A stretch of DNA of 44,111 nt from Pseudomonadota bacterium (GTDB lineage Bacteria > Pseudomonadota > Gammaproteobacteria > Methylococcales > Methylomonadaceae), in NCBI GenBank assembly GCA_039800705.1, contig JBDLQG010000001.1:1-44111 (forward strand), written 5' to 3'. Below, piece by piece: positions 3,086 to 39,954 of this stretch. The notes under the pieces were generated by a model that saw only the letters and a program-made list of their open reading frames with translations, did not search any database and was not told the DNA's origin. Numbering within the stretch: position 1 is the stretch's first letter; every line of letters starts with the position of its first letter. A program made the translations under genes and the position numbers.

Positions 3086-3628
3086 ATGAAAATCAATGAC
3101 AAATTAAACCTAGTAACGACTGTTGATAGTGATTTAGGCACGATTTATATACACCACACAGCTATTGGTTATGACGTTTTTAAAGAAAATTTCTTAGCAT
3201 TAACTAAAGTGCATGATGCAATCAATAGTGAGGGCGTGGCGTTATCAGGGGCGCGTGTAGCGTATTTGATGCTTGACCAAACCGCAAAAGAATCAGACAT
3301 CAATATCAAACCGTTGGTTAATGAGCTTAAGCGATTAACTAACGTTATTGTTCCCAGTGCGACGGGTAACTATGAGCCTATCGCGTTTGAAGTGGCAATA
3401 ACAGACGGGCTAATTGATGAGCTTCAACACGACGAGGTGATGAATGCTATTGTTTTTTTTACTTGCGTATTGCAGTTGCAGCGAGGCAAACAAATACTGA
3501 AATACACACTATCGAACATGACGGCAAGGTGGGGATTATTAACTACCTCATTGGATTGCGTGGCGTATCTGAAACAATTGCCGATATTGACAGAGACCGA
3601 CAATGCTGGAAATGCGGCAGCAGCTTAA
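3086..3628 (+). CDS. tail assembly chaperone (G-like, zero-frame product)
   Basis: 180-aa ORF directly upstream of the tape measure, overlapped by a -1 frame ORF open from 3421 to 3747. Confidence 0.7.
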   Translation: MKINDKLNLVTTVDSDLGTIYIHHTAIGYDVFKENFLALTKVHDAINSEGVALSGARVAYLMLDQTAKESDINIKPLVNELKRLTNVIVPSATGNYEPIAFEVAITDGLIDELQHDEVMNAIVFFTCVLQLQRGKQILKYTLSNMTARWGLLTTSLDCVAYLKQLPILTETDNAGNAAAA

Positions 3629-10616: not shown

Positions 10617-11303
10617 ATGCTAAAAACGACTATACCCGCGTATTTATACCTGCAATATCGGGATGATGAGGCTTTACAGTCGTTTGTCGATTCATTTAAT
10701 TTGTTGGCACAAAATTATGTTGATGGATTTAACGCGCTAAACCTGCCCATTTACAACCTACAGACTAATTTAATGCTGGACTGGGTAGGCAATAACCTTT
10801 ACAGCATACCGCGTCCTGTTTTCCCTTTTGGTCATTCCGATATTAGAGACGCGATTAATACATGGGCATTTAATGAAATTGCGTTTAACGAGCGCAAAAT
10901 TATTAATCCGACATACTACGCACCGACTAATGATGATGTGTATAGACGGGTAATAACGTGGTCACATTATCGCGGTGATGGTTATCACTTTAATATTAAA
11001 TGGCTTAAACGGCGTATTATGCGGTTCTTAACAAATACTGATGTAACACAAACTTATCAAATATCGGTAACGTTTGGAGTCGGTAATCAGGTTAATATCA
11101 CGATTTACAACAATAATCGTCACATTATCAAGCCGTCCGCAATTATCAATATGTTTGCTTTTAATGAAGTGGCATTTAATCAATTAAATACTGTTTATGA
11201 ATCACTTACAAAATATGAGCTTGCAGAAACAGTAAAAAAAGCAATTGAGGCGGGTGTGTTACCTTTGCCTTTTCAGTTTACATACGTTATCAACGTGATA
11301 TAA
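10617..11303 (+). CDS. baseplate/tail protein (gpI / Mu gp48-like position)
   Basis: 228 aa, between the J-like and fibre genes. Confidence 0.5.
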   Translation: MLKTTIPAYLYLQYRDDEALQSFVDSFNLLAQNYVDGFNALNLPIYNLQTNLMLDWVGNNLYSIPRPVFPFGHSDIRDAINTWAFNEIAFNERKIINPTYYAPTNDDVYRRVITWSHYRGDGYHFNIKWLKRRIMRFLTNTDVTQTYQISVTFGVGNQVNITIYNNNRHIIKPSAIINMFAFNEVAFNQLNTVYESLTKYELAETVKKAIEAGVLPLPFQFTYVINVI

Positions 11304-18098: not shown

Positions 18099-18177
18099 GT
18101 ATACACGATTTTAAGAATAAAAAAAGAAGTTTATTAAAAATAATTAAAATATTTTTCTTTTTTTAATCGTGTATAAT
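18099..18177. promoter_or_regulatory. mirror-image divergent promoters: 13-bp inverted repeat AGTATACACGATT / AATCGTGTATAAT flanking a 53-bp A/T spacer
   Basis: Each arm carries a -10 (TATACT leftward, TATAAT rightward) fused to the same AATCGTG box. 12/13 positions are symmetric. Confidence 0.55.
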
Positions 18178-18203
18178 GTGATTTTTGATAATCAGGAATT
18201 ACA

Positions 18204-18344
18204 ATGAAATTTGAAAGAACAGAAACCGATGAAAACGTCCATATCCATGCCAGCGCAACAATTTTCAAATTTTTTGAATATGCGTTACGGGCTGCTGTGA
18301 TTGTTTGGGTTGTGGCTGGTTTATTTTTTGATAAGCACGCATGA
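18204..18344 (+). CDS. 46-aa peptide with hydrophobic C-terminal half (not in track)
   Basis: AGGAA RBS. MKFERTETDENVHIHASATIFKFFEYALRAAVIVWVVAGLFFDKHA. ATGA overlap with the next gene. Confidence 0.55.
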   Translation: MKFERTETDENVHIHASATIFKFFEYALRAAVIVWVVAGLFFDKHA

Positions 18345-21626: not shown

Positions 21627-22052
21627 TCAATGTTTTATAAACCGACTCGCACCAGCGCGTAGCCTTGCCAGTACGTCTTTTTTTGCGTCCTTGTCAAATT
21701 CGTCCAGTAAATCCAGCAATCTAGCGAACTCCATAGAGGTTAGCTGTCCTTTTTGCTGATTTGTTTTTTTGCTGGTTATTGCCAGATTCCAGATTTTAAA
21801 GCTACCGTTACGGCTTACAGGCTGTTTATGGTCCAGTTCAATGTCGGTAATCGGTACACGAGCTCCTGTGTATTCACAAGTTAAGTATTGCCGTTTACGG
21901 TACGTTTCTATGCGTGGCTCATAGGTAAGCAAAAACAAGTAAAAGTCGTTAGGCATAGGCACATCATCGGGTGATATGCTTAGTTTTTTAGCACGCGCTA
22001 AACAATTGATCCTAAAGTTTTGTGCTTTTTTTTTGGCTATTTGTCGAAACAT
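21627..22052 (-). CDS. HNH endonuclease (possibly the C-terminal part of a longer gene)
   Basis: ELDHKQPVSRNGSFKIWNLAITSKKTNQQKG HNH motif. The start lies inside the upstream ORF next to an A9 run. Confidence 0.8.
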   Translation of the reverse strand: MFRQIAKKKAQNFRINCLARAKKLSISPDDVPMPNDFYLFLLTYEPRIETYRKRQYLTCEYTGARVPITDIELDHKQPVSRNGSFKIWNLAITSKKTNQQKGQLTSMEFARLLDLLDEFDKDAKKDVLARLRAGASRFIKH

Positions 22053-22203: not shown

Positions 22204-22478
22204 TCGCTTCTATATGCGCATAAATTGCAGACATTTTCAGCTTGCATTTGCAAATTAGGATTGCAATTAAAGCATTCTGGCGGCTCAATAAGAGTGCTCC
22301 AGAAACTATAATATTCAGCAGGATTTAAACCCATACAATCAACAATTAATACTTGTTTAATCTCGCATTTTTTACAACGTCTTATTGTTGATTTTGACGA
22401 TATTCCTAGTAAATCATAATCACCTTGTTGTATCGTTTCCCATTGATGGAAATGAAATAGTTTTTTTAAATTAATCAT
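22191..22478 (-). CDS. Cys-rich small protein
   Basis: 95 aa containing CKKC...CFNC...CNLC. Confidence 0.6.
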   Translation of the reverse strand: MINLKKLFHFHQWETIQQGDYDLLGISSKSTIRRCKKCEIKQVLIVDCMGLNPAEYYSFWSTLIEPPECFNCNPNLQMQAENVCNLCAYRSECIK

Positions 22479-23161
22479 TGGGTGTCGTGTCCGTGTATTA
22501 AGTTATGGCAATCTTTGCAGACTGTTAAAAGATGGTTCATTGGTTCATTGCCCAATTCTGCATAGGTTATGTGATGCACTCTGAGATTGTTTTTACTAAA
22601 ACAAAGTTTACATTCATTGTTATCAAGAGCCATTCTGTTTTGTCGTTGTCTTTTCCACTTTTCAGAATGAATATAATCGTTGTATTCGTCTAGCAGGATT
22701 TGTGGGATTTTGTGGGCATATTTAGGAATATCAAACGGTGTTAAATTTATAGCAGAACCAAGCAATAATAAATATGTTTCGTTCCAACTATTTGAAATCC
22801 ATTCAATAACTAAATCTGAAATATAACCAAGATGTTCCTTGCATTCTGGGCAATACAAAATATATGATTTTCTATCATCGTCATGTTGTATAAACCCAAA
22901 ACTTAACCCGTTACGGTTATGGTTATAATGCTCATCCGATAATTTCCAAAAATTATCTTTAAATACATCGGCTTTAAAATTTAAAGCTTTTCCTGATTGT
23001 TCAACAAGTTCATAACCACAATTTAAAGCAATCTCTTTTTTTACAGCCGTACCAAAGAACGAACCGCATTTAATACAATACTGTCTATATTGCGTTCTAC
23101 CTATTGAATCAGTTGTAAAACAATACTTAAATTCTGTTGATTCACATACTTTACATTTCAT
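22475..23161 (-). CDS. zinc-ribbon protein with C-terminal HNH nuclease motif
   Basis: CKVC..CIKC and CPEC at the N-terminus and middle. CKLC...RVHHITY...NHLLTVCKDCHNLIHGH at the C-terminus. Confidence 0.7.
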   Translation of the reverse strand: MKCKVCESTEFKYCFTTDSIGRTQYRQYCIKCGSFFGTAVKKEIALNCGYELVEQSGKALNFKADVFKDNFWKLSDEHYNHNRNGLSFGFIQHDDDRKSYILYCPECKEHLGYISDLVIEWISNSWNETYLLLLGSAINLTPFDIPKYAHKIPQILLDEYNDYIHSEKWKRQRQNRMALDNNECKLCFSKNNLRVHHITYAELGNEPMNHLLTVCKDCHNLIHGHDTQ

Positions 23162-25855: not shown

Positions 25856-26177
25856 GGGTTATCTTCTATGGTAGATGATAACCCATGATAACCCAGAAGA
25901 TAACCTAACGTAAGTTATTGATTTTTAAATGATTTATTTCTCTATTTATAACTAAAGTTATCTTGTTATCAACTATTTTATAAAAATAGATAGAGAATAA
26001 GATAACAAAAATAGAAAATAAAAAATAAATTTTTTTCTGTAAATGTTTGAAATAGATGATAACCCGCATAGATGATAACCCAAACCTACTTGAATCCGCG
26101 CGGCTGTAAGGCTGAGCATGGGTTATCATGTAGATAACCTAGATAACCTAAGTAAAATAAAATTGAGTAGATAACCC
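25856..26177. repeat. origin of replication: iterons (A)GATAACC(C/T) flanking an A/T-rich core
   Basis: 10 copies of GATAACC in both orientations: 25856-64 rev, 25877-84, 25887-94, 25899-905, 26058-65, 26074-81, 26120-27 rev, 26133-39, 26142-48, 26170-77. Three share the 12-mer AGATGATAACCC. Three more GATAAC cores occur in the A/T-rich centre. Confidence 0.75.
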
Positions 26178-28288: not shown

Positions 28289-28731
28289 ACGCAGAATTAA
28301 AAGAAGCACAAGAGCAGTTAATCGCATTAATTGCAGAAAGGGAACATATAGAAAAAACAATACCTGAACTTGAAAAACAATTAACTAAGCTAAAACAACG
28401 TATTAGCGATTTAAACCCATCAATATCGCGAAAACACGAAAAAGGCTTGATAAAAAAAACCGAATTACAAGTTTTAGAGCTTAGTAGCCCTGTTTTTTAT
28501 GATTTATGCAGTTTGCAAAATCAATTAAACCCATTGATTTATCGGATTATTGATGTTACCGACAAATGGATAATTATCAAACGTGATGGTGAATGGCAAG
28601 ATAACACAACAGAATACAACGTAAAAAACGGGCGTATAAAAGGGGCCCGTAGTTCAGAGGGTGCAATTGATGTTGTTAAAGCCTTAGCAGTGTGGGAGCA
28701 GCATAAAGCAAGTAATGGCGGTGATGTATGA
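28285..28731 (+). CDS. hypothetical protein with N-terminal coiled coil
   Basis: 148 aa, ATGA coupling. Confidence 0.65.
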   Translation: MNAELKEAQEQLIALIAEREHIEKTIPELEKQLTKLKQRISDLNPSISRKHEKGLIKKTELQVLELSSPVFYDLCSLQNQLNPLIYRIIDVTDKWIIIKRDGEWQDNTTEYNVKNGRIKGARSSEGAIDVVKALAVWEQHKASNGGDV

Positions 28732-29288
28732 TTCAAACGCATACCACACACAGCGGTAAATTAATTCATGTTGGCACAGTCGGTCATTATGCAACTGTGT
28801 TTGAGCGTGTAAAAGTTAAAGCGCCTAAAACCTCATACTTTTTTGACGATTACGATAAAGAAGTAAAAATGTGTGAATTTTGCGGTGTTGTTGCGTTAAA
28901 ACGTGGCCAGCAAAAATATTGCTGCCAGAAGTGCAAAAGTGCAGGCTATGTGCGTGAACATTCAGTAAATGAAAAAGTGTGCAAGCAATGCGGCAAGCAT
29001 TTTGTGTCACGATCACCGATTGCTAAGTTTTGTAGCAATCAATGCTCAGCGGATTCAAGAAAAGTGGCTACTCAACAGTGCAAACAATGCGGCAAGATGT
29101 TTGCTCCGAGGAAGCAAAGCAGTAGATTGTGTAGCGTGGCGTGTTTAGCGGCGTACAGAACTAAACCTAAACAACCTAAACCGTGCCCTGTTTGCCACAA
29201 TAACTTTATACCAGTGAATAAATGGCAGCAGACCTGCGGGTTTAGTTGTGGTGGTAAATTGAGATTTGTTAGAGATAAGGAACGATGA
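28728..29288 (+). CDS. protein made of four tandem zinc-ribbon repeats
   Basis: Four units of CxxCGxxF...(F/L)CSxxC, for example CKQCGKHFVSRSPIAKFCSNQC and CKQCGKMFAPRKQSSRLCSVAC. Confidence 0.7.
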   Translation: MIQTHTTHSGKLIHVGTVGHYATVFERVKVKAPKTSYFFDDYDKEVKMCEFCGVVALKRGQQKYCCQKCKSAGYVREHSVNEKVCKQCGKHFVSRSPIAKFCSNQCSADSRKVATQQCKQCGKMFAPRKQSSRLCSVACLAAYRTKPKQPKPCPVCHNNFIPVNKWQQTCGFSCGGKLRFVRDKER

Positions 29289-33397: not shown

Positions 33398-36300
33398 ATG
33401 AATGCAGAACTTGACATAACTGGCAGCGGCTTAACGACTCCATTACTAGACATATTAATGGCGGATAACATACAAGTTGGTTCTGATTTAGGTTATCAGT
33501 TATGTAAACAACTGTATTTACATCACCCGTTAGGGGCAAAAATAGTCGATTTACCGATTGTTAAAGCCCTATCTAAACCGCGTAAACTATCCGTTCCTAA
33601 TAGTCCTGAGGACTTGGTTGTAAAGGCGTTTGTTGACGAGTGGAACGCGTTAAAAGTCGATAGCATTATAGCCAACATTGCACGTCAAGCCAGAATCTAC
33701 GGCTTTGGTAGCGCAATTATGGGCGTTGATGATGAGGGCGTAGAATCCGAACAAAAGACTAAAACTAATGAGCCGCTACCGTTAGAACAACTGTATAAAC
33801 TCAATATCTTTTTTAACGTACTCGACCCATTGAATACAGCGGGTAGCGTTATTCTATCTCAAGATGCAAACAGCGTAGACTTTCAACGTATTGACTCGGT
33901 AACGTGCCAAGGCAAGCCTTATCATCATTCGCGCGTTTGTACGTTCATGAATGAGCGACCTATCTACCTATCTTACACACAGTCAAGCTATGGCTATGTG
34001 GGCAGGTCTGTATTTACCCGTTCATTGTTCCCTATGAAGTCATACATTAGAAGTATGATTACTGATGACAGCGTGGCTACTAAGGCTGGCTTGTTAGTCA
34101 TGAAAACTAAAAAGGCGGGTACTATTGTCAATAAAACTATGCTGGCAATCAGTGAGTTCAAACGGACAGTTTTGAAAGGCGCGGCTACTGGCAACGTGCT
34201 GGATATGGGTACTGATGACAGCGTAGAGACGCTTAACATGACTAACGTCAATCAAGCAATGGACGCAAGCCGTAAGAACATACTTGAGAACATAGCCGCA
34301 GCCGCAGGATTGCCTGCCAAGTTGTTATCTAACGAAACCTTTGCCACTGGTTTTGGAGAAGGTGCAGAAGACGCAAAAGAAATTGCTGAATATATCGACT
34401 GGTTTAGAAATGAATTGCAACCACTCTATGATTTTTTTGATCAAATTGTCATGTATCGCGCATGGAATCCTGAATTTTATGAAACTATTAAACCGCGCTG
34501 TCCTAGTTATAAAGACGTATCCTGGCAAGCGGCTTTTAATAGCTGGAAAAAGTCATTTTGTGCAGAATGGGAAAACTTGTTAAAAGAACCCGATAGCGAG
34601 TTGATTAAAGTTGAAGAAACTAAATTTAAAGCTATTAATGATTTAATAGGCGCGGTGTATGACAAATTAGACCCTGTTAATCAAGGGGCTGTATTGGAAT
34701 GGGCACAAACTAACCTAAACGATAACAAGTTGTTATTTCCTAATCCGTTAGAGATTGATCCCGACTTATTGATTCAATATAGTGCTGAACAACAAGCGCA
34801 AGCACAGCAACAACAAGCGCAACAGTTGGCATTGATGCAACAACAACCACAAAGCAATGAGCAGCCAGCCTATGCTGATTCTGTTGCGTATGCTGATGGT
34901 TGGATAACACTTAATGGCGAAAGTGGAGAAGAGGGTAACGGCGGTAGTCATGTATTTGTCGGGGCAGGTGGCACAATCGAAAAAGGTGCGAGCGGTTTAA
35001 AAGGTAAAAAGCTCAGTGATTTGAAAGGTACTAAGAAGTTTACTAAGTATGAGACCAATGCCGAGCGTGAACAGCCAGAACCATTAAAAGGCGCGGCAAG
35101 GCTAAGAGCAATGAATGAGCAAAGAGCTAAAGAAAAAGAAGCCGATAAATTAGCCAATCCAGAAAAATACGAACCAGCAAAAAGCAGCCCAAAAAAGAAC
35201 ACGCTAGAATCAGATCATCATGTAAATGAACATTATGCAAAGGCGACTATTCCAGAGCTTGAAAAAATGCACAAAGACATGAAAGCTAAAGGCGAGAAAT
35301 TATCACTTAAGGCTTTGGAAAACACACCAACTGGAAAAGGTGGTGGCGGCAATCAAAGAAAAAACAACCAGCGAGACACTACTGGCGGGAATATGCTTGC
35401 TAACGCTATGGATTTGGAATCATACATAAATGCGCGAAAAAATGCAGAGCGTGAACAGTCGCAGGCTAAGGAAACCAAGCAAAGCGAGCAATCCGCCACT
35501 GATAAGCCAATCGAGTCAAATAATTTGACAAAACAATCAAATCATGAAACAATGTCTCCAACGTCTCAATCCGAGGCGCACACTGGAGAAGCTAAAATGA
35601 ACGCAAATAATATCTTAAATGCTGTAAAAACAGACAAAAAACAAAGCACGTTGTTTTTAAAACCAAGTCATACAGCAATAGCAATTGCAAGCATGACGTC
35701 AACACAAATGGACGGCAAGCATGAAAAAAGCGTTATGTCTTTAAATGACTCGCTGGCTGCAATTGGCATAAACAAAGACGGAACATTAATGAATGGTGGC
35801 AAATTAGACAAAGATGAATTTGAAAAAATAAAAGATTTTGTTAGTAAAAACAAAGGGTTTTATAACAAAAATACCGATGAGTTTGGCGGAGTAGGTGGCG
35901 AATGGTTAGAATCGCAAGCCAAAAAATTTGAGATCAATCACAAAGCATACGGAAGAGACGCGGATAAAAAAAATGCAGCTTATCTTGCTGAAAAAGAAAA
36001 AGAAAAAGAGTTTTACAAAAATCAAGCCGCTCCAGCAAAACAACAATCAGCGTCTAATAGCGGCGGTAATAAATCGTCTGTATTAACGTCAGGTGCTGAT
36101 GCGGGCAAAATAAAAGTTGAATATGGACATAATTCAAAAATGTACGATGATTTGAAAAAATTAAAAGGAGCAAAATACATTAAAAGCGGATTGTTTTATA
36201 TCCCGTCAGAACATGCAAAAGCAGTAGCTGATTTATCAAAAAAACATGGGTTAGAGTTAAGTGATGGTTTTAAGCGAAATTTTCCAGAAGAGTCAAACCT

Positions 36301-36922
36301 GACTCCACAATCAAATCATGAAACAATGTCTCCAACGTCTCAATCCGAGGCGAACACTGGAGACAAGACAATGAACGTAACAGATTTTTTAGAAAAACAT
36401 TATCCACACAATGCAAAAAATGCTCAGTACACAAAAGGTACTGAACACCACGACAGTAATGTTAATTTCCATCTTGATAATGCAATCAAGGAAGAAATGG
36501 GTAGCGATATTAAGCCAATATCGCAAAATGGCGGCGGCGAGTTTTCTGACAAACAGCGTAAAAATTTTATGCAAGCGGTTGAAGAATCTCAAAACGAAAA
36601 CAAACCTGCATTGGTAGGTACTGAAAAACAAGTAGAGTGGGCAAACAGCATCAGAGACAAAGCATTTAAAAAGCTTAATTATGTTAAGTCGTTTTTAAAT
36701 AACATTAATTATGATGCCATTCCAGAGGCTAACCATGCAGTTATAAAGCCATTAATCGGCGAAATACTGACAAACATTGAGGACATAAAAAGCATTGATA
36801 GTGCTAAAAAATGGATTGACAACAAAGGTTTTGATTTAAATAGCCAACTTTTAAATCCAAGCAAAAAAGGTGTTATAAATTCTTTGTTGACATCAGCGGC
36901 AACGGATAAATTTCAAAAATGA
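33398..36922 (+). CDS. portal protein (aa 1 to ~480) fused to a ~700-aa C-terminal extension
   Basis: Follows terL directly. A Gln-rich linker QQAQAQQQQAQQLALMQQQPQ separates the portal-sized N-terminal part from a Lys/Glu-rich multi-segment tail. Confidence 0.75.
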   Translation: MNAELDITGSGLTTPLLDILMADNIQVGSDLGYQLCKQLYLHHPLGAKIVDLPIVKALSKPRKLSVPNSPEDLVVKAFVDEWNALKVDSIIANIARQARIYGFGSAIMGVDDEGVESEQKTKTNEPLPLEQLYKLNIFFNVLDPLNTAGSVILSQDANSVDFQRIDSVTCQGKPYHHSRVCTFMNERPIYLSYTQSSYGYVGRSVFTRSLFPMKSYIRSMITDDSVATKAGLLVMKTKKAGTIVNKTMLAISEFKRTVLKGAATGNVLDMGTDDSVETLNMTNVNQAMDASRKNILENIAAAAGLPAKLLSNETFATGFGEGAEDAKEIAEYIDWFRNELQPLYDFFDQIVMYRAWNPEFYETIKPRCPSYKDVSWQAAFNSWKKSFCAEWENLLKEPDSELIKVEETKFKAINDLIGAVYDKLDPVNQGAVLEWAQTNLNDNKLLFPNPLEIDPDLLIQYSAEQQAQAQQQQAQQLALMQQQPQSNEQPAYADSVAYADGWITLNGESGEEGNGGSHVFVGAGGTIEKGASGLKGKKLSDLKGTKKFTKYETNAEREQPEPLKGAARLRAMNEQRAKEKEADKLANPEKYEPAKSSPKKNTLESDHHVNEHYAKATIPELEKMHKDMKAKGEKLSLKALENTPTGKGGGGNQRKNNQRDTTGGNMLANAMDLESYINARKNAEREQSQAKETKQSEQSATDKPIESNNLTKQSNHETMSPTSQSEAHTGEAKMNANNILNAVKTDKKQSTLFLKPSHTAIAIASMTSTQMDGKHEKSVMSLNDSLAAIGINKDGTLMNGGKLDKDEFEKIKDFVSKNKGFYNKNTDEFGGVGGEWLESQAKKFEINHKAYGRDADKKNAAYLAEKEKEKEFYKNQAAPAKQQSASNSGGNKSSVLTSGADAGKIKVEYGHNSKMYDDLKKLKGAKYIKSGLFYIPSEHAKAVADLSKKHGLELSDGFKRNFPEESNLTPQSNHETMSPTSQSEANTGDKTMNVTDFLEKHYPHNAKNAQYTKGTEHHDSNVNFHLDNAIKEEMGSDIKPISQNGGGEFSDKQRKNFMQAVEESQNENKPALVGTEKQVEWANSIRDKAFKKLNYVKSFLNNINYDAIPEANHAVIKPLIGEILTNIEDIKSIDSAKKWIDNKGFDLNSQLLNPSKKGVINSLLTSAATDKFQK
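35513..35598 (+). repeat. in-frame repeat, copy 1 (core 35534-35589)
   Basis: CAATCAAATCATGAAACAATGTCTCCAACGTCTCAATCCGAGGCG(C)ACACTGGAGA, encoding QSNHETMSPTSQSEAHTGE. Confidence 0.9.
36293..36378 (+). repeat. in-frame repeat, copy 2 (core 36308-36363)
   Basis: 55/56 nt identical to copy 1, 774 nt (258 codons) downstream, encoding QSNHETMSPTSQSEANTGD. Confidence 0.9.
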
Positions 36923-37104
36923 AACCCGCCGACCTAATCCGCTTAAGTGGAGTGTCAAAACAAACGCTCCACAACTGGAAAAAGAATAAGCCAGTGCTGT
37001 ATGAAGTTGTACGCCTTGGCTGTGAAGTAAAACTACAACAAGAACCACAACTGCAAGACAATTGGTACGAATGCAAGACATTAGACAACACCCAGATTAC
37101 ATAG
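36919..37104 (+). CDS. small HTH DNA-binding protein
   Basis: LIRLSGVSKQTLHNWKKNK HTH. ATGA overlap with the portal stop. Confidence 0.6.
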   Translation: MKPADLIRLSGVSKQTLHNWKKNKPVLYEVVRLGCEVKLQQEPQLQDNWYECKTLDNTQIT

Positions 37105-37166
37105 CCGCCGTAATCAATGCTTATAATCAGGGCGCGATAACTAAACAACAGCGCGATGATTTACTA

Positions 37167-37193
37167 AAGCCACTCTAAGCAGTGGCTTTTTTT
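37167..37193 (+). terminator. rho-independent terminator
   Basis: AAGCCACT-CTAAGC-AGTGGCTT followed by TTTTT. Confidence 0.8.
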
Positions 37194-37194
37194 A

Positions 37195-37203
37195 TGGTAT
37201 AAT
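37195..37203 (+). promoter_or_regulatory. extended -10 promoter TGGTATAAT
   Basis: Perfect TGnTATAAT abutting the terminator. Confidence 0.6.
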
Positions 37204-37208
37204 GTTTA

Positions 37209-37286
37209 TGTGGCTAGGGTAGCTCCCGAAAACGTGATTACTCGCACGAATGCCACACTATCCTATCGAGTACCATTTTAGGGTAA
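37209..37286 (+). promoter_or_regulatory. structured 5' leader of the Rha gene with competing helices
   Basis: TGTGGC/GCCACA (37209-14 / 37252-57). CTATCCTA (37258-65) can pair either with TAGGGTAG (37215-22) or with the initiation-region octamer TAGGGTAA (37279-86). Confidence 0.4.
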
Positions 37287-37290
37287 TAAA

Positions 37291-37956
37291 ATGCAAACAG
37301 AATTAGTACACAGAGAAAATAATAAGGCTTTTACAGATTCTTTGATTGTGGCAAAAGAATTTAATAAACGTCCTGCTTATGTTCACGAAAAAATAAAGGC
37401 TTTTCTTAATAGCGAAAATGACGAATTAAGAAAATTCGGACTGCAAACTTTTGTGCAATCCTCTTATGTAGATGAAACAAATAAAGTCCGTGAAAAGTTT
37501 GATATTACAGAAGACGGCTTTTTAGAATTGGCAATGTCATTTACTGGCGATAAATCAAGACTGATTCGCACACGATTTATAAAAGCCTTTCGTGATGCTC
37601 TTAATGAAATTAACCGACTTTATGCTAACCCGCCACGAACCGATTTAATAACTGACAAGCGTAACGCACATAACCCGATGATGACGGCATTAATTGAATT
37701 GCGGCATGATTTAGGCAAAGAAACAAAGCCAGTGCATTTTATGTGTGAAAATAAATTATGCAATGGTGTAGTAACTGGCAATTACAAAACAGCCGATGAA
37801 TCCGCGTTATCAAATGCCGATATTGAACTGTTGGCACAAGTACGAAAACGTAATGAAGCGTTTTTATTGTCTGGTATCGAGTATGAAGAGCGCAAAAAAA
37901 GATTAATTGCGTTTGCAATGAAACATCGAACTAATTTACTAAAAACAGGACAATAA
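37291..37956 (+). CDS. Rha-family phage regulatory protein
   Basis: The N-terminus ...NNKAFTDSLIVAKEFNKRPAYVHEKIKAF resembles the Rha domain. Confidence 0.6.
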   Translation: MQTELVHRENNKAFTDSLIVAKEFNKRPAYVHEKIKAFLNSENDELRKFGLQTFVQSSYVDETNKVREKFDITEDGFLELAMSFTGDKSRLIRTRFIKAFRDALNEINRLYANPPRTDLITDKRNAHNPMMTALIELRHDLGKETKPVHFMCENKLCNGVVTGNYKTADESALSNADIELLAQVRKRNEAFLLSGIEYEERKKRLIAFAMKHRTNLLKTGQ

Positions 37957-37958
37957 AA

Positions 37959-38276
37959 ATGTTTTTTACCTTTGTACAAAATAATGTTCATGGCGACATT
38001 GTTAAAAACGAAAACGTTGCTGAATATGTGATTATAGAAGCTGATAATTCAGAAAAAGCCAATGAAAAAGCAACTCTAATTGGAATAGATGAAAGTGATT
38101 ATTGCGAATGTTGCGGTTGGCGATGGGTAGATGCGGAAGATAAAAACGGAACTATAAATCCTACAGTAAAAGATATTACCGACTTAGAAAATTATAAGGA
38201 TGATTTTTATCCATCGGTAAAAATTATTATTTATTATGATAATGGTAAAAAAACAATATTAACGTGCAATTGGTAA
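37959..38276 (+). CDS. hypothetical protein (CECCGWRW motif)
   Basis: 105 aa. Confidence 0.6.
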   Translation: MFFTFVQNNVHGDIVKNENVAEYVIIEADNSEKANEKATLIGIDESDYCECCGWRWVDAEDKNGTINPTVKDITDLENYKDDFYPSVKIIIYYDNGKKTILTCNW

Positions 38277-38288
38277 CGCGATGAATTA

Positions 38289-38318
38289 TTGACAACCAAT
38301 AAAAACACGCGCTAAACT
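38289..38318 (+). promoter_or_regulatory. promoter TTGACA-18-TAAACT
   Basis: Consensus -35 at 38289-94 and -10 at 38313-18. Confidence 0.5.
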
Positions 38319-38324
38319 AACCAT

Positions 38325-38425
38325 AGATTTTTGAATATGTGCGGTAACACGAATTCAAAAGTCATTCAGTGTACTTTATAAAAACCCGCGTCATAATGTT
38401 ACCGCATTGTGATAGCGGGTTTTTT
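38325..38425 (+). ncRNA. candidate ~100-nt sRNA or attenuator leader (two hairpins plus U-tract)
   Basis: Hairpin 1: 38326-36 / 38353-63, 11 bp with a 16-nt loop. Hairpin 2: AAACCCGC..TCATAATG-TTACCG-CATTGTGA..GCGGGTTT followed by TTTT. Loop 1 TGCGGTAACA (38340-49) is the exact complement of TGTTACCGCA (38397-406). Confidence 0.4.
38382..38425 (+). terminator. long rho-independent terminator hairpin
   Basis: 8 + 8 bp stem, hexaloop and T-run, 16 nt upstream of ATG 38441. Confidence 0.65.
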
Positions 38426-38440
38426 ATTGGGATTTATAAA

Positions 38441-38773
38441 ATGAAAACATTACTTATAGCAGCAATCGCTTTAATGATTGCAACAACTGCACAGGCTAAA
38501 CCTGTCCACAAAAACACTCAAGCGGATGCTGATTTTTGCGGGTATACTTACAATGAACTTGCAGAAGTGGCGGTGATAGAGGGATTTTGTGGTATTAGAG
38601 GCTCTAAGGCTTTGGAGCTGGATAGATTACTGTCTTCAAAACATTGCCCACAACCCACTAATCAAGAGATGCTTAACATTGTGAACGCACAAAAAGCAGA
38701 AGTGCAGGACGTGGCGCGGACTAATCCAAGCTTGTGTCAATCGGAAGCGGTAAAAAACATCATTGGTTATTAA
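38441..38773 (+). CDS. secreted/periplasmic small protein (signal peptide, 4 Cys)
   Basis: MKTLLIAAIALMIATTAQA/KP signal sequence. The track start at 38369 lies inside the terminator hairpin. Confidence 0.6.
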   Translation: MKTLLIAAIALMIATTAQAKPVHKNTQADADFCGYTYNELAEVAVIEGFCGIRGSKALELDRLLSSKHCPQPTNQEMLNIVNAQKAEVQDVARTNPSLCQSEAVKNIIGY

Positions 38774-39808: not shown

Positions 39809-39885
39809 TGATAAAATAATTACGCTAGTTACAGTTCTATACAGCATTAATCAGTTAGTCTGGAATGCGCAAAAAACTGATTAAA

Positions 39886-39913
39886 AACGCCTATTAATTA
39901 GGCGTTTTTTTTT
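39886..39913 (+). terminator. rho-independent terminator
   Basis: AACGCCT-ATTAATT-AGGCGTT followed by T9, preceded by a second 9-bp hairpin (39848-56 / 39875-83). Confidence 0.85.
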
Positions 39914-39921
39914 GCCTGTAT

Positions 39922-39954
39922 ATGTTATGATATAACATAACATAGTGCTATAAT
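39922..39954 (+). promoter_or_regulatory. capsid-operon promoter: palindrome ATGTTAT-GAT-ATAACAT plus extended -10 TGCTATAAT
   Basis: TGCTATAAT at 39946-54. The ATG at 39961 is 7 nt after the -10, a leaderless geometry. Confidence 0.5.

Follow-up and report, generated by a model that had tools for sequence, protein, structure and literature searches.

Why would a phage place an intrinsic terminator between a promoter and the start codon of the gene that follows? The question is raised by a short element at positions 38289-38425 (+ strand) of contig JBDLQG010000001.1, of which a stretch of 44,111 nt (positions 1 to 44,111 of the forward strand, hereafter the window) was analysed. The window, derived from a freshwater metagenome, represents a nearly complete phage genome (about 44 kb), and its nearest cultured relatives, judged by the capsid protein (52% identity), are Yersinia, Pantoea and Klebsiella phages. 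The element consists of a promoter and two hairpins with complementary loops, the second hairpin being the terminator, and is followed by the ribosome-binding site and start codon of a cargo gene. Comparison with related loci points to an unlisted self-pairing regulatory RNA, and the unit appears to be a new, rare and horizontally mobile structured RNA leader. We place high confidence in the structure, moderate confidence in the loop-loop pairing and little in the direction of control.

Anatomy of the element

The initial annotation had described the region as a promoter-hairpin-terminator unit, and this unit is real and conserved in four copies. All coordinates given here refer to the + strand. 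The predicted promoter is located where it had been annotated and is likewise conserved in all four copies: a -35 hexamer TTGACA (38289-38294), common to all of them, is followed after an 18-nt spacer by a -10 hexamer TAAACT (38313-38318), with 10 of 12 matches in the promoter scan. From its position, transcription is predicted to start at 38325/38326. A promoter match of this kind alone is not above chance (13 sites versus 14.6 expected in 5 kb); the assignment as a sigma-70 promoter is based on the consensus match together with its conservation, the hexamers lying 16-18 bp apart in the different copies.

The first paired base follows directly. Hairpin 1 (38326-38363) has an outer stem of 11 bp, including one U-G pair, in which 38326-38336 pair with 38353-38363 and enclose 16 nt. 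The 11 bp had been annotated correctly, whereas the 16 nt do not form an open loop. Folding with ViennaRNA places an A.A mismatch (38337/38352) and four further pairs (38338-38341 with 38348-38351) inside them, leaving a 6-nt loop CGGUAA (38342-38347). Hairpin 1 is separated by an A/U-rich single-stranded linker (38364-38379), the most variable segment among the copies, from the intrinsic terminator (38380-38425). This had been recognised as an interrupted hairpin ending in a U-tract, as it is, but with two stems of 8 bp; we read 10 bp in each. The lower stem pairs 38380-38389 with 38415-38424 and is set off by a bulged A at 38414, the upper stem pairs 38390-38399 with 38404-38413, and the loop UACC (38400-38403) is closed by a U-G pair. 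A stem of 20 bp with a CCCGC/GCGGG base and U6 (T6 run at 38420-38425 in the window), as expected of an intrinsic terminator, is present in all four copies. The terminator probably acts in one direction, because an upstream A tract is not conserved. The ribosome-binding site (GGGA) and the cargo ATG (38429-38443) are both conserved with the unit; the former lies 4 nt past the terminator and the latter, at 38441, 15 nt past the T run. An open reading frame (ORF) start at 38369 had been considered unlikely and is indeed wrong. The homologues P0002 and P0003 start at an ATG matching 38441, and the region upstream of 38441 is conserved as RNA before unrelated genes, in different reading frames. 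The resulting RNA of 104 nt has a predicted folding energy of -39.8 kcal/mol (z = -7.1; none of 200 shuffles equal, ViennaRNA).

The apex of the terminator, UUACCG (38399-38404), is complementary to the loop of hairpin 1. The initial annotation had noted a longer match, which is readily confirmed in the sequence: the decamer TGCGGTAACA (38340-38349) is the exact reverse complement of TGTTACCGCA (38397-38406), and each of the two occurs a single time within the window. Exact 10-nt inverted repeats within 100 nt are common in this DNA (22 in the window versus 5.9 +/- 2.7 in simulations). The observation nevertheless stands above chance, because the repeat sits on both hairpin apexes and is conserved and covarying in relatives. 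Taken singly, the features appear unremarkable; it is their combination and their behaviour in relatives that seem to give the finding its value.

Four copies in three phage backbones

Across all collections searched, four distinct copies of the element were found, in the window and in contigs L003, L017 and L018, on three phage backbones. L003 (and L004), from microbial mats, has a backbone 91% identical to the window and an element of 91% identity. The Rha protein encoded upstream is only 31% identical to that of the window and the downstream gene is unrelated. L017, which is the same as L014 and L020/L021, is a 44-kb phage with far lower identity to the window in the portal (30%), head-morphogenesis (29%), capsid (25%) and TerL (44%) proteins. 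In the head modules of these two phages, blastn aligns only a small ORF (78%) and the element (78.6%). L018 (the same as L019 and L022) is a P1-like myovirus with PmgG- and PmgB-like proteins, tail sheath and tail tube, and its genome holds nothing detectably similar to TerL, portal, head-morphogenesis or capsid protein of the window. This copy was located via the small ORF and matched a covariance model built from the other three copies (34.7 bits, E about 3e-5 in 155 kb). Its -35 box lies in non-homologous sequence, the loop of the preceding terminator, so that the promoter was either kept or rebuilt independently.

The plan is the same in all four copies. TTGACA and TAnnnT are separated by 16-18 nt, exactly 7 nt lie between the latter and the first paired base of hairpin 1, and a linker measuring 12-17 nt leads to a terminator hairpin of ~20 bp, behind which come U6, ribosome-binding site and ATG. 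Spacers measure 18/16/16/16 nt and -10 boxes read TAAACT/TAAACT/TACACT/TATTAT. One common fold is predicted for the four copies (z = -7.1, -6.9, -5.9 and -3.5). In a model-guided alignment of the four (A10), 97.4% of the pair cells in 40 pairs are standard and nine pairs are changed on both sides. None of 500 shuffles reached the observed covariation, and sliding the partners gave 0-2 such pairs. Pairs changed on both sides account for 3 of 15 in hairpin 1 and for 4 of 7 in the upper part of the terminator stem, which is heavily changed yet still paired. Hardly any variation is seen in its lower part or in the U tract. In the linker, 7-10 of about 17 columns differ between copies, with the length held at 12-17 nt. 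In every copy the + strand folds better than the - strand, by 7-19 kcal/mol, and several pairs are U-G or G-U. Folding energies and G-U pairs thus assign the structure to the + strand RNA. The covariation search among relatives that the initial annotation had proposed therefore yields support for both hairpins in A10, and the two loops proved conserved or covarying.

The two loops covary

The 6-nt core of the loop-loop match retains 6 of 6 pairs in all four copies. In L018 the loops are CGGACA (hairpin 1) and UGUCCG (apex) in place of CGGUAA and UUACCG in the window type; two loop-loop pairs are swapped on both sides (U:A to A:U and A:U to C:G) and the other four are unchanged. The L018 apex is thus altered at 2 of 6 positions, both compensated in the hairpin 1 loop, on a background of 16 changed columns out of 22 in the upper stem. 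In L017 the apex 6-mer carries no change (0/6), versus 9 differences in 19 neighbouring upper-stem columns. Since it covaries in L018, the loop complementarity appears to be selected. A compensatory change in apical loops is what is expected of kissing loops; here it is provided by one divergent homologue.

The kissing complex that had been postulated from the window is supported as a 6-nt unit that covaries in L018, but not at its full length of 10 nt. Computed in the manner of RNAup, the 6-bp kiss amounts to -4.2 kcal/mol in the window and -6.4 kcal/mol in L018. Lengthening it to 8 and 10 bp in the window gives -4.3 and -3.1 kcal/mol, without net gain. As extension must open stem pairs for no gain, the working unit is the pair of 6-nt loops and not the 10-mer, whose complementarity stems from the identical U-A and G-C pairs that close the two hairpins. 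In L018, the extended loop match includes a G-U pair. The initial annotation had further suggested that the pairing opens the upper terminator stem or forms an alternative fold, and neither idea is borne out. The decamers reach no further than the top 2-3 pairs of each hairpin and nothing is gained in energy beyond 6 bp, which leaves the opening of the terminator unsupported; the kiss is not able to melt it. A nested competing (anti-terminator) fold was not predicted at any length tested. Between types, CGGUAA and UGUCCG form only three contiguous pairs, so the two loop types would not be expected to cross-pair. An origin of the loops by inverted duplication was rejected, the similarity of the hairpins ending at the decamer.

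The element occupies a cargo slot

In the window, the element is preceded by genes for TerL, portal, a helix-turn-helix (HTH)-like ORF, a 35-aa ORF, a terminator, a Rha-type regulator and DUF7296. It is followed by genes for the 110-aa secreted protein, head morphogenesis and an 86-aa ORF, a terminator, and the genes for protease/scaffold and major capsid protein. Three strong + strand terminators thus split the head module. The last of them (39883-39909) closes the unit after the secreted-protein, head-morphogenesis and 86-aa genes, and equivalent closing terminators are found behind the cargo of L017 and L018. The cultured relatives PdC23 and YenM and the metagenomic L005 have compact head modules without the slot. 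A cassette between genes that are adjacent in relatives, with a promoter, lineage-specific cargo and a closing terminator, corresponds to a moron.

The cargo differs in each copy. It is the secreted protein in the window (38441-38773; N-terminal signal peptide MKTLLIAAIALMIATTAQA, followed by K), an 84-aa protein in L003, proteins of 90, 73 and 98 aa in L017 and, in L018, an Ant anti-repressor (phrog_130, E = 5e-40). TTGGG or TTGAGG, 8-11 A/T-rich nt and an ATG therefore stand ahead of four unrelated genes; that the ribosome-binding site and the ATG are kept behind the terminator argues for a leader role. Cargo gene and element are separable, since the homologues of the 110-aa secreted protein in L001, L002 and L005 have no element near them.

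The left flank of the slot is conserved and consists of the small ORF (35 aa in the window, 37071-37178, MQDIRQHPDYIAAVINAYNQGAITKQQRDDLLKPL) with a terminator hairpin over its last codons (37166-37189), which is also conserved in L003 and L018. Members of this small-ORF family (P0009, P0012-P0014, P0017, P0019, P0022; L026-L028) are phage proteins of 35-56 aa with unrelated tails and cargo. They share the motif PDYIxAVxNAYxQGAITxQQRDELL, and the tails diverge right after ELL. The small ORF of L017 extends into the promoter. After the ELL codons, the window and L003 carry an inserted terminator-promoter-Rha cassette, together with DUF7296 in the window, where the Rha-type regulator or anti-repressor-like gene (37291-37956) and the DUF7296 gene (37959-38276), both identified by profile scans (PHROG, Pfam), occupy 37291-38276 between small ORF and element relative to L017. 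As a result of the insertion, CGCGATGA(A/T)TTA is duplicated, and what remains of the small-ORF 3' end (38279-38317), reading RDELLTTNKNTR up to a stop, is non-coding. The promoter now lies on this remnant, at which the Rha/DUF7296 insertion has its right-hand junction. Its counterpart in L014/L017 is the end of an intact 40-aa ORF, and the blastn joints between the window and L017 overlap at the remnant (38279-38317). The duplicated motif CGCGATGA(T/A)TTA (37153-37165 and 38279-38291; Arg-Asp-(Asp/Glu)-Leu codons) flanks a terminator-promoter-Rha-DUF7296 block of 1.1 kb and looks like the footprint of an insertion or exchange by recombination at short homology.

Three of the seven small-ORF contexts lack the element (L026, L027 and L028). 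L026 carries two tRNA-Met (CAT) genes behind the small ORF (2733-2808 and 2857-2928), closed by a plain terminator (2945-2975). Base and tail of this terminator, AAACCCGC...GCGGGTTTTTTATTG, are identical to those of the element terminator, and an upper stem is absent. As L026 has the same base only, the upper stem-loop of the element looks like an addition to a shared terminator. In L027 a terminator is followed by an extended -10 promoter resembling the Rha leader of the window, and in L028 a lipoprotein-like gene abuts the small ORF. Judged by these contexts, the slot appears to be a cargo hot spot in several phage types, with the element as one recurrent occupant, always directly ahead of the cargo. 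The element also marks a recombination hot spot where unrelated phages swap cargo.

Searches and rejected candidates

At the gathering threshold, Rfam gave no family for the copies in the window, L003, L017 and L018; below it, the matches to Leu, Trp and Phe leaders, to rliE and to others are explained by the succession of a hairpin and a terminator. Neither the region nor the 13 kb around it had a blastn match among 50,697 phage records. The L018 version gave a single match of 30 nt to Acinetobacter phage phiAC-1, in the small-ORF terminator and outside the element. Exact-sequence look-ups of the window proteins returned no identical record. With the head-morphogenesis protein as anchor, three collections yielded L005/L013 and two distant metagenome-assembled contigs, and with the Rha protein as anchor L006-L010 were retrieved, all without the element. 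A pattern search based on the decamers recovered L014 and also L015 and L016, jumbo-phage contigs that were rejected as unrelated chance matches; a decamer-free pattern recovered L014 only, and a degenerate pattern L014, L022 (the same contig as L018) and L023. The last was discarded as a chance match inside a gene. Contigs of sequencing runs X3-X6 over the region contain a single variant, of the L003 type. A second copy of the element was found neither in the window nor in 20 kb of L017.

A proposed default-off leader that recognises its own copies

The explanation that we favour, tentatively and at somewhat less than even confidence, is that the element is a portable default-off leader, releasing an RNA of ~100 nt that recognises its own copies through its loops. 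A sigma-70-type promoter would start transcription at the first paired base of the 5' hairpin, and the very stable terminator ~100 nt downstream would stop most polymerases 4 nt ahead of the ribosome-binding site. The main product would be a two-hairpin RNA of ~100 nt, the cargo being expressed by read-through only. The pairing of six hairpin 1 loop bases with six apex bases would be the selected feature that confers specificity. In cis, the loop of the folded 5' hairpin may capture the apex strand before the upper stem nucleates, which should be easy during transcription because ~33 nt of single strand lie between hairpin 1 and the apex sequence; such a capture would slow folding of the terminator and permit basal read-through. 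The finished short RNA would kiss another molecule more readily than itself. Its stems of ~16 and 20 bp, about 45 and 56 Å, would form with the 6-bp kiss a rod of ~120 Å, which a linker of 12-17 nt barely spans, so that the self-kiss is disfavoured. In trans, accumulated short RNA would then dock on nascent loops, block capture in cis and restore full termination. The outcome would be a self-recognising negative feedback exerted by the sense strand, with the loop sequence as specificity type. Least certain in this scheme is the sign of the effect, which could also be the opposite one, an IsrK-like activation of the read-through mRNA.

Several points weigh against the proposal. Only four distinct sequences are available, and three of them share identical loops, so that the loop covariation rests on a single divergent homologue; in the corresponding shuffle control 33 of 500 (1/16) scored as well, a value that a single divergent copy cannot improve on. 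At -4 to -6 kcal/mol before a stacking bonus, the computed kiss is weak, and it leaves at least 17 of the 20 terminator pairs intact; any effect on termination would therefore have to be kinetic. The steric case against an intramolecular kiss is a rough estimate and not a model. The window-type -35 box descends from Leu-Leu-Thr codons of the ancestral small ORF, and L026 has the same TTGACA without a matching -10 box. The element is dispensable for the slot, given the three contexts that lack it. Searches of sequencing runs gave no transcript support; they matched two studies, both of DNA, with no RNA runs.

A more far-reaching version, which we consider rather unlikely, is a self-recognising RNA lock that travels between unrelated phages together with anti-repressor and other accessory cassettes. 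Here the loops would pair between molecules and not within one, the released ~100-nt RNA would titrate or close nascent copies of its leader, and CGGUAA/UUACCG and CGGACA/UGUCCG would represent mutually blind immunity types. On the sense strand, such a lock would correspond to the incompatibility RNAs of plasmids and to the c4 heteroimmunity of P1 and P7, placed in a terminator loop. If the loop-loop contact does control read-through, the element would be a compact, portable module of ~140 bp that silences anti-repressors and other accessory genes, and a new example of informative terminator loops, with a simple two-loop specificity code between competing phages.

Alternative explanations

Among the alternatives, an ordinary moron boundary survives best, although we regard it as improbable. 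The terminator would insulate the head genes, the promoter would leak low constitutive cargo expression and the loop match would be an inherited chance. Three strong + strand terminators divide the head module, which is common where accessory genes have been inserted, 10-nt inverted repeats are not rare in themselves, the loops are identical in three of four copies, and the plain L026 terminator shows that the base AAACCCGC...GCGGGTTTTTTATTG occurs without an upper stem. The last observation can also be read the other way, since the extra 10-bp upper stem that L026 lacks looks like a loop-presenting addition. A loop without function should vary most, whereas in L017 it is the most conserved part of the upper hairpin, and in L018 each loop has changed twice and is still perfectly complementary while 16 of 22 upper-stem columns have changed.

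Slightly less probable is a stand-alone small RNA (sRNA) acting in trans on host or phage mRNAs, with one loop or the A/U-rich linker as seed and the second loop masking it, buffering it or causing dimerisation. The anatomy is that of a classical sRNA gene, with a promoter, a paired 5' end, an A/U-rich stretch by the terminator and a U6 tail, and terminator loops can be functional pairing sites (PMC11979758). However, an external target gives no reason for mutual covariation of the two loops, and the linker, as a possible seed, is the least conserved part. Neither the window nor 20 kb of L017 contains a second match to either decamer; each decamer has only one 8-mer match, at chance level. The ribosome-binding site and ATG conserved behind the terminator favour a leader instead.

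A processive antitermination site seems doubtful to us, and considerably more so than the two preceding alternatives. Hairpin 1 and the bases before it would be nut-, put- or qut-like, late transcription would pass over this terminator and the next, and the short RNA would be made by unmodified polymerases, as at lambda PR'-tR'. The short PR' transcript of Stx phages doubles as an sRNA. Late transcription of the window phage must cross three strong terminators to reach the head genes, and three copies share the bases of the spacer and of the early transcript, AAAACGCGCTA.ACTAACCA.AGATTTTT; L018, however, lacks these spacer bases. PHROG and Pfam scans of the ORFs tested revealed no Q-, N- or other antiterminator-like gene, and antitermination gives no reason why the terminator loop should match that of hairpin 1. 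Nor is it required, because promoter-like sites follow the closing terminators (39927-39954 in the window and TGTATAAT in L017). A signal at the DNA level, in which a DNA-binding protein of the phage recognises the decamers as inverted sites and loops or occludes the region, is very improbable: a dimeric protein of changed specificity would also produce a covarying inverted repeat and a small HTH-like ORF lies nearby (36919-37104, below the Pfam cut-off), but the half-sites are 57 bp apart centre to centre, each falls exactly on the apex of a covariation-supported RNA hairpin, G-U pairs make the structure strand-specific (the G-U of L018 is a mismatch in DNA), and the decamers recur nowhere else in the window or 20 kb of L017.

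Translation of the small ORF as a means of opening hairpin 1 was dropped as a general mechanism. It is compatible with L014/L017, in which 5 nt separate the stop codon from hairpin 1, but with neither the window nor L003.

Comparison with known systems

The default-off, self-recognising leader postulated here would have few precedents. To our knowledge very few RNAs regulate their own read-through transcript, namely IsrK, P4 CI and P1 c4, and none does so via the apical loop of its own terminator. IsrK of the Salmonella prophage Gifsy-1 is a short terminated RNA that acts on its own read-through transcript (PMC4825925). As is predicted for the element, a prophage promoter yields a short terminated product, and a fraction of the transcripts reads through into genes including an anti-repressor-type regulator, the short form acting in trans on the longer one (PMC4825925). 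It differs in forming a helix of ~30 nt with orf45 that acts as a structural switch of translation, whereas the element pairs 6-nt apical loops. The two are unrelated in sequence and in Rfam, and the two isoforms of the element are predictions. Its anatomy would permit a dual function of the IsrK type, with the terminator 4 nt ahead of a conserved ribosome-binding site and loops complementary to each other. The CI RNA of P4 is a sense leader RNA in which seqA, seqB and seqC are complementary parts of one transcript (PMC4825925), and in P1 an anti-repressor of the Ant class is kept off by a small RNA (PMC12197685). P4 CI and P1/P7 c4 resemble the element as sense leader RNAs that are complementary to their own transcript and silence replication or anti-repressor genes (PMC4825925, PMC12197685). 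In contrast to the element, CI and c4 are cut from a longer precursor and have a fold of their own (Rfam C4 family) that does not match it. Their targets are linear and located at a ribosome-binding site or leader, while the element would target its own terminator loop. Membership of Rfam C4 was rejected, there being no match at the gathering threshold, nor sub-threshold around the element, in the window, L003, L017 or L018. Between P1 and P7, a few compensated bases define heteroimmunity, and the two loop types of the element parallel this.

In the OxyS-fhlA interaction, the terminator loop and a second loop both kiss the target (cited in PMC11979758). The same two kinds of loop would be used by the element, with the difference that OxyS loops pair with a foreign mRNA and those of the element with each other. 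Covariance models do not match the element, which therefore belongs to none of the IsrK, CI/c4 or OxyS families and resembles IsrK, CI and c4 only in regulatory logic.

Plasmids pT181 and pIP501 offer a further parallel. There, loop-loop contact between an antisense RNA and the nascent leader ahead of the regulated gene sets terminator formation, giving negative feedback that depends on RNA concentration. Their regulator is encoded on the opposite strand and an explicit anti-terminator helix is formed, whereas the element is sense-strand and has no predicted competing helix. Lambdoid morons have their own promoter and terminator and lie between late genes, and the 6S RNA of lambda PR'-tR' combines a constitutive promoter with an early terminator. 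The classical moron terminator stands after the gene; the element adds one between promoter and gene, and a Q-like protein was not found. In the packaging RNA (pRNA) of phi29, loops of different molecules are complementary and pair 'hand in hand', and the two loop sequences covary among relatives. The element likewise has two complementary loops and is located in the structural gene module in two of three backbones. It differs in that the window phage encodes TerS and TerL of the ordinary kind, a terminator provides the second loop, and close relatives such as L005 lack the element. With TerL and TerS present and no Rfam match, assignment to phi29-type pRNA was rejected. Amino-acid leader attenuators (Leu, Trp, Phe) were also dismissed: matches were sub-threshold only (18 bits against a cut-off of 50, and 14 against 41), no leader ORF is conserved (window and L018 differ in frame and length), and there is no alternative helix.

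Further features of the window

The 35-aa ORF ends in Lys-Pro-Leu-stop, and these codons make up the left arm and the loop of the terminator hairpin AAAGCCAC...GTGGCTTTTTT. The same small-ORF/terminator arrangement is found in the window (37071-37189), L018 (6001-6125) and L003 (3231-3352). Translation of the small ORF may suppress the terminator at 37166-37189, because a finishing ribosome would sit on the hairpin. In L018, the stop codon of the small ORF falls inside the -35 hexamer of the next promoter. In the window, an extended -10 promoter (TGgTATAAT, 37195-37203) follows directly after the terminator, and the Rha leader behind it (37208-37290, ~85 nt) has a predicted fold no better than shuffles (z = -1.6). 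L027 shows the same terminator-TGGTATAAT arrangement. In L003, a long interrupted terminator-like hairpin and U7 (3514-3588; z = -3.5) precede the Rha ribosome-binding site. According to the fold prediction, this would be a second, unrelated promoter-proximal terminator ahead of an anti-repressor-like gene.

The region 39883-39954 comprises the symmetric, bidirectional-looking closing terminator AAAAACGCCTA...TAGGCGTTTTT and then a promoter-like site (39927-39954; ATGATA-16-TATAAT, with TG before the -10 as in extended -10 promoters) before the protease/scaffold gene. L017 has a matching terminator, followed by a palindrome-rich stretch and TGTATAAT (10810-10905).

Among the window ORFs scanned, no integrase, CI-type repressor or Q-like antiterminator was recognised; Rha is present. 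The portal ORF (33398-36922) encodes 1174 aa, with matches to portal profiles restricted to residues 23-491. Lys, Glu and Gln are abundant in the C-terminal ~680 aa, where the repeat LT[KP]QSNHETMSPTSQSEA.TG..[KT]MN occurs twice. L017 has a separate 742-aa ORF without PHROG match at the corresponding position. Inverted repeats of at least 10 nt within 100 nt include those at 26056-26130 and 18100-18270; near the former, ATGATAACCC is present in two direct copies and one inverted copy and may represent an origin or operator. Three HNH-endonuclease-like ORFs are located at 21627-22052, 22475-23161 and 28728-29288.

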